From Gammaproteobacteria bacterium (GTDB taxonomy: Bacteria; Pseudomonadota; Gammaproteobacteria; Eutrophobiales; Eutrophobiaceae), in NCBI GenBank assembly GCA_003250975.1, contig QKIY01000033.1, positions 14,086 through 78,085 of the forward strand: a stretch of DNA of 64,000 nt. Direction: 5' to 3'. Positions 5,424 to 23,037 of this stretch are shown here, piece by piece; the first letter of the stretch is position 1, and every line of letters starts with the position of its first letter. Position numbers and translations under genes: made by a program. The notes beneath the pieces were generated by a model. That model had not been told where the DNA came from, did no database searches, and was given only the letters and a program-made list of their open reading frames with translations.

Positions 5424-6188
5424 TCAGTTCTCATACCGGCCATGTGGATTCCCTTTATGCCGGTTTCCGTTTTCATTCTCCTTATCGCTATTATGTTTGT
5501 TATGCCTTTCATCAGGTTCTCTATTTGCCTGATGATCGTAATTTACATTACCATGGCTATTCCTGCCGTCCGGCTTCCCAGCCCTGTCATCTGACTTCAC
5601 ATGTCTATCATCCGGTCTTCCAGTCCTGTCATCTGACTTCACATGTCTATCATCCGGTCTTCCAGTCCTGTCATCTGACTTCACATGCCTGTCATCCGGT
5701 CTTCCAGTCCTGTCATCTGACTTCACATGCCTGTCATCCGGCTTCCCAGCCCTGTCATCCCGCTTCCCATGCCTGTCATCCGATCGGTTATTCTTGTACC
5801 CCTTTTTGTGATCTTCCCTTGATCTGTAATGTTTATCACGGGAATGATGACCCTCGACAAATTTTTTCGGGAGTTTCTTCTCGCTGTATTTCTTCCAGCC
5901 TTTGTCCAGGTCTCTGCTCCTGTACCAGTGATCATGATCATACCTGTAATAATGACCACCGAAATAATAATAATCAGGGAAACCGATAACAACATAGACT
6001 CCTAGATAAGAGTCATATACCAGATCATGGCCATGATGCTTGTGCCTATAACCGTGCGCCGGTGCATGCGGCGGGGGGCCAGCATCATGATCATGATAAT
6101 ATGCATGGTGATGATGAGGCACAATTTCACATCCTGTCAGCATTAAAGCGAACATCACAAGGCCGCAAATTACGTATATCTTCTTCAT
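5424..6188 (-). CDS. His-rich, highly charged repeat lipoprotein (hypothetical, possible periplasmic metal-binding protein)
   Basis: MKKIYVICGLVMFALMLTGC is a signal peptide with lipobox. An HHHH / HxH-rich N-terminal region is followed by roughly 4.5 tandem copies of the 14-aa unit DDRHVKSDDRTGRP. Confidence 0.6.
   Translation of the reverse strand: MKKIYVICGLVMFALMLTGCEIVPHHHHAYYHDHDAGPPPHAPAHGYRHKHHGHDLVYDSYLGVYVVIGFPDYYYFGGHYYRYDHDHWYRSRDLDKGWKKYSEKKLPKKFVEGHHSRDKHYRSREDHKKGYKNNRSDDRHGKRDDRAGKPDDRHVKSDDRTGRPDDRHVKSDDRTGRPDDRHVKSDDRTGRPDDRHVKSDDRAGKPDGRNSHGNVNYDHQANREPDERHNKHNSDKENENGNRHKGNPHGRYEN
5563..5790. repeat. 42-bp tandem direct repeat (about 4.5 copies, with a 21-bp sub-periodicity) inside the lipoprotein CDS
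   Basis: ctgtcatctgacttcacatgtctatcatccggtcttccagtc is repeated head-to-tail, seen directly in the sequence. The repeat is in-frame (42 = 14 codons). Confidence 0.9.
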
Positions 6189-6317
6189 CACGATCAACAC
6201 CTCGTATTTAATTAATGGACTATTGATAATCCTATCATCCGATTATCCGGTGATAGCAAATTAGACAGGGAGACTGCGAAAAGTATCAATGCATGAAGTG
6301 TATTTTAGTGAGTCTTG

Positions 6318-16263: not shown

Positions 16264-17496
16264 TCACAGCCTGATCCGCTTTAACAGAGGGACCATGGTG
16301 GTCGTCTGGACAAACAGGGTAAACAACACCACCCCGTAGGCCACCGACTGGATGGTGTACCAGTAATCGAGGCTGACGGGAAGAGAAAGGGCCAAAGCTA
16401 GGGTGACCGTACCCCTGACCCCGCCCCAGCTGAGCAGGAATTGCTCAGCTGGGGAAACTGGTCGCTTGCGCTGAAAGAAATTAATGACTGGAAAAGTGGT
16501 GTAGATTGTCAAAAACCTCGCGGCCAAAACGGAAGCTATACCGACCATCATCGCAAACCATTGGTCAGAAAACATGGTCCAGGTGATCGTAACGCCCGCC
16601 AGTACAAAGATCAGTGCCTCGGCAATGCTGGAGAGAAATTCCCAGACCTGGTTGACCGCCTCACTCCTGTTTTCCTTGATAAAGGCCCAGCCGAAATACC
16701 CGGGGACTAGACCGGCGGCCAACACGGCCATAACCCCTGACAATTTTAGGACTACCTCTGCCAGGATATACGTGAGATAAACACAGCAGGTCGTGACCAT
16801 CAACTGCAGGTATACGTCCCTGACCAGCCGGTTGAGGTATTGCGTAATCATCCCGGTCATCACGCCGACTGCCACGCCGCCGAGGAATATCGACAGGAAA
16901 TTCATCACCACCCCGAACAGTCCCTCAATGCCAGACGTCACGGGGGAGGATACCGTCATGCCGATCAGGATACTGTAAAGGACGATGGCCGTAGCGTCAT
17001 TGAACAAGCTCTCTCCATCCAGCAGGATCCGGAGACGTGTTGGCACATTCATCTTTTCAAACAGGCTGATCACCGCGGCAGGATCAGTCGCTGACAATAG
17101 TGCGCCGGCCAGCAAGGCGGCCAGCCACGGAAATCCGGCCGGATGATTGATCCCGGTATACAGTCCAATGGCTATCACTGCTGTCGAGAGCAACATCAGC
17201 GGAAGTGAGAGGATCATGATAACCATCAGGTTGTCACGCAGTAATCTCAAATCCATCTTTAATGCTGACTGGTAAATCAGGACAGGCAGGATCGCGTAAA
17301 AAATAATGGACTGAAAGTTTTCCCAGCGTATACCGGTATCAAGACCGAACACACGCGTTGTGATTTCAGAACCAATAAATCCGGCAATGATCAACAGAAC
17401 AGGATATGGAAGGCTTAATCTTTCTGCGACCGGTTTCAGCAGGGCTGCCAGCGGCAGTAATACCAGCATGAAAAGTATTGCATTCAAATTGCTCAT
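16264..17496 (-). CDS. CPA1-family Na+/H+ (cation/proton) antiporter
   Basis: 410 aa, about 11 TM segments, NhaP-type sodium/hydrogen exchanger motifs. Confidence 0.7.
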   Translation of the reverse strand: MSNLNAILFMLVLLPLAALLKPVAERLSLPYPVLLIIAGFIGSEITTRVFGLDTGIRWENFQSIIFYAILPVLIYQSALKMDLRLLRDNLMVIMILSLPLMLLSTAVIAIGLYTGINHPAGFPWLAALLAGALLSATDPAAVISLFEKMNVPTRLRILLDGESLFNDATAIVLYSILIGMTVSSPVTSGIEGLFGVVMNFLSIFLGGVAVGVMTGMITQYLNRLVRDVYLQLMVTTCCVYLTYILAEVVLKLSGVMAVLAAGLVPGYFGWAFIKENRSEAVNQVWEFLSSIAEALIFVLAGVTITWTMFSDQWFAMMVGIASVLAARFLTIYTTFPVINFFQRKRPVSPAEQFLLSWGGVRGTVTLALALSLPVSLDYWYTIQSVAYGVVLFTLFVQTTTMVPLLKRIRL

Positions 17497-17546
17497 GGCC
17501 TGGGCGTCTTACCCCCGGTATCAATAGCTGGCCTGTGCGAGCTCCC

Positions 17547-18158
17547 TCAGGCGGTACTGCTCCTGAATCGCCTGGCCAGCCAGTAATCGAAACCCAGATA
17601 CCTGCCACCGCCGCTGAAGAACAACACCAGCAGCATGAAGAAATAGGTCGCGGTAAATTCGATACCATTTTTTAAGATGGTGATCGTTCCCGCCTCTGTC
17701 AGCCAGTCATAATTACCGTGCTCTTCCAGGATCTGGTTGGCTAGTTCCTTCCTGGTAATAGCCTCATCTATCTTTTCCTTTTTCCATTCCCATGGGACCA
17801 TTAATTCCTTCTCGGGTAATACATGCCAGCCATTATCCCAGTGTGCCGTCACTGCGGCCACGACCATGGTAAACATCAGGGGCAACGCAAACCAGCGCAC
17901 GGCCAGGCCAAGGAGGAGACAGCAACCGCCTATGAATTCAATATAACCGGCCAAATAGGCCATGATCGTTGGCGCCGGTATACTGAGGGAAGCAAACCAC
18001 CACCCGATGCTTTCAACATTCGACAGCTTGTTGGCACCTGCAAGTATGAAGATCGGTGCAAGATAGATCCGTAATGCCAGTGGGCCCAGGAAATCCAGTG
18101 CCCTGGTTTTATCAAGCAGATCGGTGGCACGGTTACTGACTTTAATTAAAGCTGACAT
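17547..18158 (-). CDS. DoxX-family membrane protein, 4th gene of the DUF2282/DUF692/DUF2063 cluster
   Basis: DoxX-like TM pattern (LALRIYLAPIFILAGANKL). An AAGGAG RBS sits 6 nt upstream of the internal ATG (MSALIK...), so the longer ORF-track start is probably wrong. Confidence 0.65.
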   Translation of the reverse strand: MSALIKVSNRATDLLDKTRALDFLGPLALRIYLAPIFILAGANKLSNVESIGWWFASLSIPAPTIMAYLAGYIEFIGGCCLLLGLAVRWFALPLMFTMVVAAVTAHWDNGWHVLPEKELMVPWEWKKEKIDEAITRKELANQILEEHGNYDWLTEAGTITILKNGIEFTATYFFMLLVLFFSGGGRYLGFDYWLARRFRSSTA

Positions 18159-18269
18159 AGGTATCTCCTTCATTCGTGATGCGCTGTTGCACCTGCCCTG
18201 AAAGAATATTGTTGTTAAATTTACCTGCCTGTCACCGGATAGCATGCACGCGAATGTTTTTTTACTTGT

Positions 18270-19040
18270 TTAGCCCTGACCCCGGATACCTAGCAAAATA
18301 TCCTTGCGATGCATGTCCTGCATAATGCCATGTCCTCCCTCGATAACGACTGCCGGTTTGGGATGGTTAAGCTCTGCTGCAACCTGCTCCAGCAATTTTT
18401 CCCCGCTTGCTTGTTGATTTTCTTTCATTAGGGCAAGGAGGCGAGCTGCAACAGGGTTTAGTTCAAGAAAGCCCACCTTGTATTGAAGGTCACGATAGAC
18501 AACCAGGTAAGTCAATTGCTCAGGGGCTTCTTTCGGGATGTTCTCCGGGCCAATGGTATGTACTGGATAATGGTAACTGAGCAGCATGATTACAGGATTG
18601 AGCACAGGCACCCCTTTGAGAACATCGCCGTCCCTTGAAATACCTGACATATCTATCTCCCTGCTATCCAGTGATACAGCCAATTCTGCCCATTCATAAT
18701 GGGCAAGCTCCAGAAGAAACGGCGGGTCATTCTCTGAATTGCGTTCACTCTCAAGATAATGAAGAAATTCGAGTGGCATCTTGGGGAATAGGGGAGTATG
18801 TGCCTGATGTGTCTTGAAATAATCACGGATCATCGCATGCCACGCATCATCAGCCGTGATTTTTCGCAGCACCGGGAAACTGGTGGACATGAAATTCTCG
18901 ACATTCCGGTAAAACAGGCCGGTGTAAATCTCCATGCGCCGGGCCTCGATGTCATCGGGCGCCGGATTACCATCCGGGTCCCTGATGTATTGAGTGAACC
19001 GGTATTGTACTCCTTTCAGACCTGACAACCGTTCAGGCAT
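18270..19040 (-). CDS. DUF2063-family protein (partner of DUF692 enzymes, HvfC-like)
   Basis: About 250 aa with a DUF2063-like N-terminus ([21 protein letters not shown]). It overlaps the upstream DUF692 gene by 8 nt. Confidence 0.6.
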
Positions 19041-19896
19041 GCTGCGCCTCTTTGTCCTGCTGATTCGTGTGTTGCTTTTGTATCAGCTTTATTTGATCCA
19101 CTTCGCTTAATAATGAATCCATGGGAGGTATATTAAAATCACGCTCCAGCAAGGTGGGAAAAACACCGAAGTGTTCATAGGCTATATGCAGCAGCTTCCA
19201 CACCGGATCGATGACATCGGATCCATGGGTATCCACCCGCAGGTCTTCTGCCTCAACGTAATGGCCTGCAATATGAGCATAGGCTATGCGCTCCCCCGGT
19301 AGGGACTTTAGAAATTCTACTGCATCGTAACCATGGTTGATGCTATTGACATGGATATTATTGACATCGAGCAGCAGGTCGCAATCAGCCTTTTCAAGTA
19401 CCGCATTAATAAATTCAATTTCAGGCATCTCCTGTCCCGGTGCAGCATAGTAAGATACATTCTCCATGGCGATCCGCCTGCCGAGAATATCCTGGACGCG
19501 CCGGATACGTGCGGTGACATAATCTATTGCTTCTTTAGTAAAGGGAATGGGCATCAGGTCATAAAGATGACCCTCATCTGCGCAATAACTCAGGTGTTCG
19601 CTGTAGTATTGAATATGGTGATTATTAAGAAACTCTCCAATTCGTTTGACAAAGGCCTCGTCGAGGGGTGCGGGACCGCCAATATTGAGAGATAGGCCAT
19701 GACAAACAAACGGGACTTTTTCGGTGATTTCCCGAAACAGATAACCATAGCGCCCGCCAACATCTATCCAGTTTTCGGGTGCGACTTCCATGAAATCGAT
19801 CTGATCTGGAATCTGGTCTGCGAGCGAGCCGATAAAGGCCCGCCGCAGACCCAGGCCTGCACCGTTTACTGGATAAGTGTGTTTATCCGGGCGCAT
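19033..19896 (-). CDS. DUF692 (UPF0276, MbnB/HvfB-like) multinuclear non-heme iron enzyme
   Basis: N-terminal GLGLRRAF and TIM-barrel xylose-isomerase-like features typical of DUF692. Located 29 nt downstream of the EGKCG-repeat precursor. Confidence 0.7.
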
Positions 19897-19925
19897 GGTT
19901 TAATGACAAGTCAGGTGAGTCCAAT

Positions 19926-20201
19926 TTATTTCTTGTCGCCGCACTTGCCTTCGCCGCACTTGCCTTCGGTCTCTTTCTTCTCACCACACTTGCCTTCGGT
20001 CTCTTCCTTCTCACCACACTTGCCTTCGGTCTCTTCCTTCTCACCACAGTTGCCTTCGGCAACGACCATATAACCGCTGGCCAACTCATTCATAGCAAAC
20101 GGATTTTCAGCAGCCTGGGCAAAGGGAGTGGTCGCTAGTGACACGGCAAAGGTAGTGCCCAGTGCAGCAGCGATTGGTTTGAAAGTGGCTTTCTTGCTCA
20201 T
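19926..20201 (-). CDS. DUF2282/HvfA-like secreted precursor peptide with EGKCGE repeats
   Basis: Signal peptide (AAALGTTFAVSLATTPFAQA), then four EGKCGEKEET units ending EGKCGEGKCGDKK. Confidence 0.7.
   Translation of the reverse strand: MSKKATFKPIAAALGTTFAVSLATTPFAQAAENPFAMNELASGYMVVAEGNCGEKEETEGKCGEKEETEGKCGEKKETEGKCGEGKCGDKK
19936..20060. repeat. 30-bp tandem repeat (about 4 copies) encoding the EGKCGEKEET units of the precursor
   Basis: tcaccacacttgccttcggtctcttccttc is repeated head-to-tail on the + strand. Confidence 0.85.
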
Positions 20202-20378
20202 TGAGGATTCCTCCAGTTTAATTGATGTACAGGGTCATTCAAGACCCGTTTCTAATACTTTTGTATGCCTTTGAACCAGGTGATTGAGAATGACTTGCAT
20301 TTCCACCCTGTGCCCAACTGACAACAGAAGGATTGACAAGCCTTGATTTGAAAAGTTTCCGGAAAGTTTTACCGCTAA

Positions 20379-21869
20379 TTAATCTTCATGCCGGAGACGC
20401 ATGTGTGGGAATAGTATGACGTCCCGGATGGACGCCGAGTCTGTCAATAGCATGACCAGACGATCAATACCTACCCCTTCACCGGCCGCCGGCGGCATGC
20501 CGTATTCCAGCGCCAGGATATAGTCGGCATCGTAATGCATGGCCTCTTCATCACCGGCCTCTTTATTTTCAACCTGCATGCGGAAGCGTTCGGCCTGATC
20601 TTCGGCATCATTCAATTCGGAAAAACCATTGGCAATCTCACGACCACCGACAATCAGTTCAAAGCGATCAGTCACGGAAGGATCATCGTCCGAGCGTCTG
20701 GCCAGGGGTGAGACCTCGGTGGGATAGGCCGTGATAAAAGTCGGGTCCTTGAGATTTGGTTCAACCGTCTTTTCAAATATCTCAAGGAGTATTTTCCCGG
20801 GACCATAATTCTTTTCCAGAGAGATATTAAGTCTCTCAGCGATCTGCCTGAGCCTGTCCACGGATTCAAGATCGTTTGCGGTAATGCTAGTGTTCATCTT
20901 CAATATCGACTCCTTGAGAGTCATCGTCGCGAACGGCTGGCCGAAATCATAGATCTCCCCCTGATATTCAATAGACATCCCACCTGTGATTTCCCTAACC
21001 AATTGTCGCATCAGGTCTTCCGTCAGACGCATCATGTCTCGATAGTCCGCATAGGCCTCATAAAATTCCAGCATGGTAAATTCAGGATTATGCCGGGGTG
21101 AGAGACCTTCGTTACGGAAACTGCGATTGATCTCGAAGACTTTCTCGATACCACCTACCAACAACCTTTTCAGGTAAAGTTCGGGGGCAACCCGCAGGTA
21201 AAGCTGCATATCCAGGGCATTATGGTGAGTGATGAACGGTCGTGCCGCCGCCCCGCCCGGGATGACGTGCATCATAGGGGTTTCCACTTCCAGGTAACCG
21301 GCCTGCTTCAGGTAGTCACGCACGAAATCGATCACCCGGGAACGAACGGCAAAGGTTTCCCGCGTCGTTTCATTGGTGATCAGGTCAAGATAACGCTGGC
21401 GATAACGCGTTTCCTGATCAGTCAGACCGTGAAATTTTTCTGGCAGCGGCCGCAATGACTTCACGAGTAATTCGATATGTTCAACGTGAACGGAAAGCTC
21501 GCCTGTTTTGGTCCTGAACAGGCGACCTTCGATCCCGATGATGTCGCCCAGATCCCACTGTTTGAATTCTGCGTAGTGTCCTTCGGGGAGGTCATCACGC
21601 TTTACATAAAGCTGTATCCTCCCCGACATGTCCTGCAGGTGGGCAAAGGAGGCCTTGCCCATTACACGACGTGTCATCATACGACCTGCGAGCCTGACCC
21701 TGACAGCAAGGGATTCCAGCTCCTCATTGTCCTTACCCTGATACTGTTTTAACAGATCAGAGGCAAAGGTATCTCGCCGGAAATGATTGGGATAAGCCTG
21801 CCCCTGTTTGCGCAATGCCTCCAGTTGCTTTCGCCGCTGTGCGATCAGATCATTTTCATTTTCTGACAT
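20379..21869 (-). CDS. lysS: lysyl-tRNA synthetase (class II)
   Basis: About 495 aa with N-terminal anticodon-binding and class II core motifs. Sits immediately downstream of prfB, as in E. coli. Confidence 0.9.
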
Positions 21870-21941: not shown

Positions 21942-23037
21942 TTACAGACCACTCTTCAGGCTGGCCTCGATAAACCTGTCCAAGTCGCCATCCAGAACCG
22001 CCTGGGTATTGCCCGTCTCCACACCGGTACGCAGGTCCTTTATACGTGACTGGTCAAGTACGTAGGATCGGATCTGGCTTCCCCAACCTATATCGGCCTT
22101 GGAGTCCTCCATAGCCTGCTTCTCCGAGTGACGCTTTAGCATCTCCAGTTCATAAAGTTTGGCCCTCAACTGACTCATGGCCTGGTCCTTGTTTTTGTGC
22201 TGCGAGCGTTGGCTCTGGCACTGTACCACGATACCGGAGGGTTCATGGGTAATACGCACCGCCGAATCAGTCTTGTTGACATGCTGACCCCCTGCCCCGC
22301 TGGCGCGGTAGGTATCAATTCTCAGGTCAGCAGGGTTGATCTCGATATCTATACTCTCATCAATTTCAGGCGAGACGAAGACTGAAGCAAAAGAGGTATG
22401 TCTGCGGTTACCAGAATCAAACGGCGACTTACGCACCAGCCGGTGGACGCCGGTTTCGGTACGCAGCCATCCATAGGCATAATCGCCTTCGAACCTTACC
22501 GTCGCGCTTTTTATACCAGCCACTTCCCCTGCTGACACCTCGATGAGTTCAGTCTTGAAACCATGGTCTTCGCCCCAGTGCAGGTACATGCGTAATAACA
22601 TCTCTGCCCAGTCCTGCGCCTCGGTCCCGCCTGAACCGGACTGGATATCTAGGAAAGCATTATTGGGATCCAACTCACCGGAAAACATGCGCTGGAATTC
22701 CAGTGCCTCGATAGTTTTTACAATGCCCGCGACATCGTTTTCCACTGAGGTAATGGTTGCCATGTCATCCTCACCTTCGGCCAGTGACAACAATTCGGAT
22801 GCGTCATTCAATCCATTGTCTATTTCCTGTAGACCGTGGACCACCGATTCCAGCGAGGCGCGTTCTTTCCCCAGCGCCTGGGCCGCTTCCGGGTTATCCC
22901 AAACCCCTGGATCAGCAAGCAGGTGTTCGACCTCGGTCAGGCGTTCGGATTTGCCTTCGTAGTCAAAGATACCCCCTAAGCGCCTCGGAGCGCTTACGCA
23001 GTTCCCTGATTTGGGTGAGGATTGGATTGATTTCTGT
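21942..23037 (-). CDS. prfB: peptide chain release factor 2 (requires programmed +1 frameshift)
   Basis: The frame-0 leader [25 protein letters not shown] ends in CTT TGA C. The +1 frame then continues [12 protein letters not shown]..., with SPF and GGQ ([19 protein letters not shown]) motifs. Confidence 0.9.
22963..22970 (-). other. prfB: prfB programmed +1 ribosomal frameshift site (CTT TGA C preceded by an AGGGGG SD-like element)
   Basis: The minus strand reads AGG GGG TAT CTT TGA CTA CGA. This is the classic RF2 autoregulatory shifty site. Confidence 0.85.

Follow-up and report, generated by a model that had tools for sequence, protein, structure and literature searches.

A probable HvfABCX-type copper-peptide cluster beside lysS in an uncultured gammaproteobacterium

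Here we characterised a four-gene cluster in a 64-kb stretch of DNA (the window) from contig QKIY01000033.1 of an uncultured environmental gammaproteobacterium. All four open reading frames (ORFs) are intact and co-directional on the minus strand, between lysS and an NhaP-type antiporter gene. In order of transcription they encode a 91-aa hvfA-like precursor (19926-20201), the 287-aa HvfB, an MNIO enzyme formerly classed as DUF692 (19033-19896), the 256-aa HvfC, a DUF2063/RRE partner of the PME-1 type (18270-19040), and the 203-aa HvfX, a DoxX-like inner-membrane protein (17547-18158). The hvfB start lies 29 nt past the precursor stop, and the start of hvfC overlaps the end of hvfB by 8 nt (ATGCCTGA), through which the two genes are translationally coupled. 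This arrangement downstream of lysS, with its 29-nt gap and 8-nt overlap, had been reported in an original prediction for this DNA, and the ORFs confirm it and its positions. A spacer of 111 nt (18159-18269) separates hvfC from hvfX. The longest hvfX ORF runs from 17547 to 18245, but 17547-18158 is likely the gene because its ATG at 18158 sits 6 nt after AAGGAG, a ribosome-binding site that the prediction had noted, and because a 204-aa orthologue is called in the closest relative (L082, GCA_041556555.1).

The precursor begins with a Sec-type signal peptide (aa 1-30; MSKKATFKPIAAALGTTFAVSLATTPFAQA, followed by AE). Sequence reading and a hydropathy scan indicate a basic n-region, a hydrophobic h-region and a predicted cleavage between AQA and AE. 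The segment that follows, AENPFAMNELASGYMVVAE, is conserved among homologues; in their alignment the core is variable, and the signal peptide and the NPF...GYM segment hardly change from one homologue to the next. In the window this core (aa 49-91) reads EGNCG-EKEET-EGKCG-EKEET-EGKCG-EKKET-EGKCGEGKCG-DKK and holds five Cys (C52, C62, C72, C82 and C87), within one EGNCG and four EGKCG motifs. The gene had been described as coding for a small secreted protein with EGKCGE repeats, and both the signal peptide and the motif cysteines were found. At the DNA level, part of the core is a 30-nt tandem repeat encoding EGKCGEKEET units (19957-20059, minus strand; 3.4 copies at 97% identity by Tandem Repeats Finder). 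A database search returned 578 homologues at E <= 1e-3, the best being 81% identical; where a source gives them a name, it is "hypothetical" or "low-complexity protein".

The precursor has no Pfam match at E <= 0.01, and we therefore ruled out DUF2282 (PF10048; the Buf1 bufferin family), the label it was first given. It instead passes NF050137 (KCGExKCG_twice), the NCBIfam domain model of the HvfA family, at 27.3 bits against a cut-off of 19.5. Judged by its sequence, the precursor belongs to the EGKCG/oxazolin precursor family, as a member of the HvfA family and not as an HvfA orthologue. The window contains no second precursor or Cys-repeat ORF. On the plus strand, an antisense ORF of 124 aa with SPHLPSV repeats (19699-20073) is the reverse-complement reading of the hvfA repeats and is not a gene.

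NCBIfam also has curated models for the other proteins of this system. HvfB matches PF05114 (MbnB_TglH_ChrH) at 345 bits (E = 3e-103) and passes the HvfB-family model NF003818 with 441.7 bits against a cut-off of 360. Assignment as BufB (NF050167, 261.3 bits, under the 310 cut-off) or as MbnB (TIGR04159, 51.3 bits, under the 325 cut-off) was rejected. The nearest solved structure by sequence is 3BWW (E = 1e-73). In MbnB the iron ligands are His54, His90, Glu133, Asp163, Asn166, His192, Asp208, His210 and Glu239 (PMC9060507), and their counterparts in the window's HvfB are H66, H101, E145, D177, N180, H208, D222, H224 and E251. Eight of these were mapped through a HMMER alignment to the MbnB chain 7TCR_A; H66 falls outside that alignment and was paired with His54 by motif and spacing. 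All nine are kept wherever a homologue is aligned at the position concerned, across 81 sequences overall. Residues N175, D242 and H244 of site 3 are essential in HvfB, and their counterparts here are among the conserved ligands.

HvfC has an N-terminal DUF2063 domain (PF09836, 82.7 bits) and a C-terminal NGO1945_C/RRE-type domain (PF22106, 100.6 bits), and passes NF050145 at 295.9 bits against a cut-off of 142. For this protein, sequence searches turned up a single solved relative, 3DEE (NGO1945; E = 1.7e-7). HvfX passes the HvfX family model NF050144 (186.7 bits against a cut-off of 80) and matches DoxX (PF07681; 80 bits, E = 2e-22). The matches to PF05114, DUF2063 and DoxX were thus all significant in the hidden Markov model (HMM) searches, and neither enzyme was left without its DUF692 or DUF2063 match.

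The hvf operon of Haemophilus influenzae encodes HvfX (DoxX-like), HvfA, HvfB (MNIO) and HvfC (DUF2063/RRE) (PMC11252979). The same four protein families are present here: three of the four proteins, HvfB, HvfC and HvfX, pass the cut-offs of curated HMMs, and the iron ligands are kept. Both observations bear out the HvfA/B/C-like, Cys-modified copper-binding system that was originally proposed, and from the sequence we consider it very likely that the locus is an intact HvfABCX-type (oxazolin/Buf_EGKCG/captophorin) metallophore cluster of the RiPP class, whose peptides are made by the ribosome and modified after translation. The two loci differ in gene order, with hvfX last here (A-B-C-X) but first in Haemophilus and Neisseria (X-A-B-C), and in their hosts, H. 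influenzae being a pathogen. HvfA has six modified cysteines plus two N-terminal disulfide cysteines (C38/C43-type), compared with five cysteines in the precursor here. In addition, HvfA carries three AEGKCGEGKCG doubles, whereas the window's precursor has one EGKCGEGKCG double and three isolated singles, the first with Asn in place of Lys.

In H. influenzae, HvfBC modifies six HvfA cysteines in three AEGKCGEGKCG motifs, with a loss of 4 Da each and a 302 nm chromophore, and the modified HvfA, oxazolin, takes up about 1 Cu(I) for every two modifications (PMC11252979). The product was first assigned as oxazolone/thioamide (PMC11252979), the chemistry also named in the original prediction. That assignment is now out of date: in 2026 the original authors moved the HvfBC product to 5-thiooxazole (bioRxiv 10.64898/2026.06.05.730506; a further source on H. 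influenzae hvfXABC and oxazolin is bioRxiv 10.64898/2026.07.17.739211). An independent assignment of 5-thiooxazole was made for oxazolin, for fontiphorin from Fontimonas thermophila and for gonophorin from N. gonorrhoeae by alkylation-assisted heteronuclear multiple bond correlation (HMBC), with captophorins proposed as the class name (PMC13097082).

Could the same cluster nonetheless convert its cysteines into methanobactin-like oxazolone/thioamide pairs? We regard this as very improbable. It has behind it the first HvfA assignment (PMC11252979), NCBIfam model names that still read "oxazolone/thioamide-modified", and a -4 Da shift that the two products share. However, the agreement between the original authors and the independent HMBC work goes against it, as does the window enzyme itself, which scores 441.7 bits on the HvfB model and 51 on MbnB (cut-off 325). 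True oxazolone/thioamides also absorb at 340 and 394 nm, not at 302-305 nm.

For the HvfABCX-type cluster, homology suggests the following pathway. Transcription would start at an ECF (extracytoplasmic function; RpoE-like) promoter just past lysS, which we read from a conserved motif described below, with possible basal read-through from lysS. HvfA would be made as a 91-aa precursor with its Sec signal peptide. In the cytoplasm, a heterodimer of HvfB, as the iron- and O2-dependent MNIO, and HvfC, as its RRE-containing partner, would act on this precursor. By analogy with HvfBC, FonBC and NgoBC, each Cys of the E-G-K/N-C-G motifs would undergo a four-electron oxidation to a 5-thiooxazole, with a predicted -4 Da per Cys at up to five sites and absorbance near 302-305 nm. 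The modified peptide would then be exported through Sec and cleaved after AQA30, leaving an acidic 61-aa periplasmic peptide. This mature peptide has a calculated mass of 6,493 Da, falling to 6,473 Da if all five sites are modified. As in oxazolin, bufferins and bulbicupramide, the N and S donors of the thiooxazoles would bind Cu(I), roughly one per heterocycle pair, and the peptide would buffer the envelope against copper or a related oxidative stress. HvfX enters this scheme as a co-conserved DoxX-like membrane protein.

Several characterised systems resemble the locus more or less closely. Fontiphorin and gonophorin are produced by an MNIO and PME-1 (DUF2063) pair that acts on Lys-Cys-Gly repeats to give 5-thiooxazoles, and the same enzyme pair is present here. 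FonA has seven modified sites; the motifs here are mostly single and spaced by EKEET linkers. Across 6,906 repeat-containing precursors, EGKCG is the commonest repeat. DoxX often co-occurs, and MNIO plus DUF2063 clusters are found in about half of Pseudomonadota reference genomes (PMC13097082). About 2,000 non-redundant Buf_EGKCG/oxazolin precursors have been catalogued, most with MNIO, DUF2063 and DoxX genes in various combinations (PMC12452194). Typical members have 17-residue repeats with two motifs each (PMC12452194), compared with the 10-residue period and mostly single motifs in the window.

The claim that such systems were unstudied in free-living gammaproteobacteria does not hold, since the EGKCG systems of bulbicupramide (Microbulbifer, PMC12538549) and fontiphorin (Fontimonas thermophila, PMC13097082) have been characterised. 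The bulbicupramide cluster mmrABC is present in all marine Microbulbifer species and its product chelates copper (PMC12538549). It is a genus-wide cluster of free-living or host-associated marine gammaproteobacteria, and the cluster here is likewise vertically conserved. The bulbicupramide precursor is similar too: its N-terminal region is conserved, and its variable core contains 5-8 Cys within EGKCG units. Its gene neighbourhood is unlike the one here, a mention of DoxX was not found in PMC12538549, and the peptide was undetected in native extracts.

Bufferins (Buf1, DUF2282, and Buf2; bufABC-doxX/gig) share the order precursor, MNIO, DUF2063, DoxX (PMC11626156, PMC12452194). They are Sec-exported, carry 5-thiooxazoles, sequester copper in the periplasm and are frequently associated with ECF sigma/anti-sigma genes (PMC11626156, PMC12452194), but they are folded domains with few modified cysteines, whereas the precursor here consists of low-complexity repeats. 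The methanobactin system MbnABC also relies on an iron enzyme of the MNIO fold, with a ligand set identical to that found here, and on a four-electron Cys oxidation to a Cu(I)-binding heterocycle. Its partner protein is MbnC and its precursor has a leader peptide, in place of the DUF2063 partner and Sec signal seen here. Methanobactin further differs in its oxazolone/thioamide product, its secretion for copper acquisition and its dedicated transport genes.

Set against the assignment as an HvfABCX-type cluster are several features of the precursor and one of the family. The precursor remains below the HvfA equivalog model NF050188, at 32 bits where the cut-off is 95, and the Cys pair near the N-terminus of HvfA is missing from it. 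Most of its motifs are single EGKCG units that stand apart, spaced by five residues in a 10-residue period. In vitro, FonBC left a single-repeat test peptide unmodified and needed two adjacent repeats (PMC13097082). For characterised members, the roles defined go no further than Cu(I) binding, induction by stress and, for bufferins, protection of growth under copper stress. Since the motifs are mostly single and FonBC spared the single-repeat peptide, the number of modified sites here may be four, five or fewer. The EGNCG motif is itself a plausible substrate, as FonBC accepts Ala, Arg or Thr in place of Lys (PMC13097082). The isolated motifs, unlike the paired motifs of characterised members, could also mean a different modification or copper stoichiometry, for example intermolecular Cu bridging.

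For comparison we fetched 80 related loci from species-representative genomes, nearly all of uncultured Gammaproteobacteria and with HvfB 62-78% identical; L082 was fetched apart from these, through the best precursor homologue, P0001. The core of the precursor contains between 3 and 20 cysteines across the related loci. Linkers are near-identical within a genome and differ between genomes (EKEET/EKEET/EKKET here and three times EKDES in L082, positions 6150-6250), and this homogenisation suggests ongoing repeat turnover or concerted evolution.

Other precursor arrangements occur among these relatives. Two tandem precursor genes lie upstream of a single hvfB in L040 (5146-5472 and 5639-5965) and in L037 (4605-5111 and 5537-5959), and L006 has two separate precursor matches. 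The two tblastn matches seen in L009, and likewise those in L022, lie inside one long precursor ORF and are thus not tandem copies. The precursors at L027:5479-5964, L028:5490-5996 and L062:5498-5965 have EF-hand-like DxDxDG loops (e.g. DADGDGKVTKDEF) between their EGKCG motifs, similar to the EF-hand fusion type in PMC12452194.

Upstream of hvfA the window contains the motif GAAACTT-N16-TCAAT on the minus strand (20332-20359), a predicted ECF (RpoE-type) promoter with its -35 at 20353-20359 and its -10 at 20332-20336. It begins 20 nt past the lysS stop, ends 130 nt ahead of the hvfA ATG and is the sole match in the window with no mismatch. The E. coli sigma-E consensus, GGAACTT / TCAAA (quoted in PMC2893595), is matched by this motif. 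The lysS-hvfA spacers of related loci have almost nothing in common save G(G/A)AACTT, exactly 16 nt, and TC(A/T)AT, and relative to L082 the -35 and -10 blocks are kept while the spacer sequence has diverged. Scored against their own shuffles, 13 of 20 lysS-hvfA spacers reach p <= 0.025. A score of at least 11/12 was obtained in 23 of 69 regions upstream of hvfA, compared with 0.5% of 1,371 control windows taken from these loci, an enrichment of roughly 60-fold.

In five relatives, ECF sigma and zinc anti-sigma genes are inserted between lysS and hvfA (L004:4490-5364, L006:4043-4911, L007:4478-5343, L015:106-995 and L017:4513-5402). The insert is about 1.1 kb and encodes an ECF sigma of about 197 aa (Sigma70_r2 and r4_2; TIGR02937, 84 bits vs 43) and an anti-sigma (86-99 aa) that carries a zf-HC2 zinc finger. 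In all five the motif has the anti-sigma gene on one side and hvfA on the other, and so it travels with hvfA rather than with lysS. In L001 a distant pair of sigma and anti-sigma genes is found between prfB and lysS, but on the opposite strand.

Experiments have shown that homologous clusters are controlled by RpoE2 in H. influenzae (PMC7907618) and by sigma-E in Neisseria (PMC2893595), and that sigma-F controls the DUF2282/DUF692/DUF2063/DoxX operons of Caulobacter (PMC3511200). The H. influenzae hvf genes are under a stress ECF sigma, and here an ECF-type promoter is predicted. From the conserved motif, the cluster is probably an ECF-dependent stress unit. Three points temper this. About 0.9 matches with up to one mismatch are expected by chance in the window alone, so that the motif draws its support from conservation. 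Some motif variants used for scoring were picked after the data were seen. Finally, the 64-kb window has no ECF sigma or anti-sigma gene, as determined by Pfam searches of ten ORFs of 153-212 aa and by tblastn with the L004 pair.

The position beside lysS is also conserved. In 25 of the 80 loci hvfA-hvfB-hvfC follow immediately after lysS, which usually has prfB and often recJ before it; hvfX, nhaP and a convergent argG are variably present downstream. The order in L082, recJ-prfB-lysS-hvfA-B-C-X-nhaP-argG, is identical to that of the window. This synteny suggests that the placement is ancestral for the lineage and did not arise by insertion of an island.

A different account would make the cluster the 3' part of a constitutive prfB-lysS housekeeping operon, with the promoter motif a chance match or a conserved element of another kind. 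We consider this unlikely. No terminator-like site was found on the minus strand between lysS and hvfA in a terminator scan, so read-through from lysS is possible, and the lysS adjacency (25 of 80 loci and L082) and the 0.9 expected chance matches would fit such an operon. In the consensus scans, intrinsic terminators and sigma-70 promoters were no more numerous than in shuffles, and neither was found in the minus-strand lysS-hvfA spacer. But the motif stays with hvfA where the 1.1-kb sigma/anti-sigma pair splits it from lysS, it keeps a -35/-10 footprint with a fixed 16-nt spacer of diverged sequence, and it is roughly 60-fold enriched over control windows. With its own ECF-type motif and a sigma/anti-sigma pair in sister lineages, the cluster looks stress-inducible rather than part of the lysS operon. 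The original prediction had placed it inside a housekeeping operon array rather than an island; gene order and ancestral placement agree with that statement, and the motif and the sister sigma/anti-sigma pair do not.

The same product could have another main role, which we judge rather unlikely: the thiooxazole peptide and the DoxX protein would chiefly protect the envelope from oxidants or from reactive species of chlorine or sulfur, within an ECF stress regulon and with copper binding secondary. The ECF-type promoter motif and the redox-type zinc anti-sigma encoded in sister loci are in keeping with this role. The homologous clusters of H. influenzae and Neisseria share their regulation with msrAB and are responsive to HOCl/H2O2, and a distant M. 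tuberculosis relative of DoxX is found in a thiol oxidoreductase complex. On the other hand, every characterised product binds Cu(I) tightly, bufferins improve growth under copper stress, and the related Caulobacter clusters respond to metals.

It is quite improbable that the peptide is instead a chalkophore, scavenging Cu(I) for cuproenzymes in the manner of methanobactin and with no part in detoxification. Copper acquisition would suit Methylobacter and other methanotrophs, in whose genomes close homologues of HvfB are common, and it would suit the presence, elsewhere in the window, of a gene for a protein with a cbb3-type cytochrome c domain. However, the cluster has no TonB-dependent receptor, MATE exporter or uptake genes, its 61-aa protein-like product is Sec-exported like the periplasmic bufferins, and stress-sigma control points to defence.

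Within the preferred reading as an HvfABCX-type copper-peptide cluster, we tentatively suggest a more specific history. The EGKCG cluster here may be a vertically inherited core module beside prfB-lysS, belonging to an RpoE-type envelope-stress regulon, in which the sigma/anti-sigma genes were lost, the promoter was kept and the precursor was reduced to a single-motif form.

The locus is an ordinary further member of a well-described and extremely widespread family, and the understanding of that family is unchanged by it. It makes modest additions, namely the conserved ECF-type promoter motif, the lysS synteny across the lineage and a single-motif precursor variant. The motif and the sister sigma pair extend the link between MNIO copper peptides and extracytoplasmic stress, known from Haemophilus, Neisseria and Caulobacter, to environmental Gammaproteobacteria. 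Its main value lies in annotation, since the locus can be named hvfABCX-like, with 5-thiooxazole chemistry. The exact 91-aa precursor sequence is absent from a collection of 15 billion proteins in which HvfB and LysS sequences identical to those of the window are present. The precursor is therefore probably uncalled, or called with another start, in public annotation, and small repetitive RiPP precursors may be missed or mis-started by gene callers.

The genes on either side complete the picture of the locus. Upstream of the cluster are prfB and lysS, the latter directly adjoining the hvfA side (lysine-tRNA ligase, 20379-21869, minus strand; NF001756, 738 bits). A functional link between lysS, through Lys-tRNA supply, and the Lys-rich precursor was considered and set aside as speculation; the adjacency is lineage-specific and no supporting evidence was found. 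The prfB gene (21942 to about 23041) has a canonical programmed +1 frameshift site, CTT TGA C (22962-22974, minus strand), preceded by an AGGGGG Shine-Dalgarno-like element. This frameshift explains why the ORF list holds only a 300-aa, GTG-started prfB fragment.

Downstream, 50 nt past hvfX (17497-17546), is the gene for an NhaP/CPA1-type Na+/H+ exchanger of 410 aa (16264-17496, minus strand; PF00999, 206 bits), which is convergent with argG. Among the relatives, nhaP follows hvfX only in L082, L002, L017 and L021. The 50-nt spacer has no terminator and nhaP is possibly co-transcribed with hvfX, though it probably belongs outside the hvf system. The 111-nt spacer ahead of hvfX could, for its part, allow that gene some independent expression. 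A weak sigma-70-like match in this spacer (18208-18235, 9/12) is no better than chance over the region.

No structured RNA was detected by Rfam between 16000 and 23200 at E <= 1. The predicted 5' untranslated region of hvfA contains a 5-bp GC hairpin, GGGTC-TTGAAT-GACCC (20232-20247, minus strand), and several relatives have a similarly placed hairpin close to the ribosome-binding site. We dropped it as a candidate element because the folding energies do not differ from those of shuffles (z about 0 to -1.5) and this hairpin is not kept in L082.

Eight of the related loci encode a further protein of 505 aa beside hvfX, in which an N-terminal membrane segment is combined with a glutamate-synthase FMN domain (PF01645, 283 bits). 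It is found at L002:7678-9198, L008:2455-3972, L021:7623-9140 and L011:11023-12531, and also in L027, L031, L036 and L052; it is absent from the window. End-cut or fragmentary tblastn matches in L009, L022, L037 and L039 bring the number of loci to about a dozen overall. This protein may act with the DoxX protein as its accessory redox partner.

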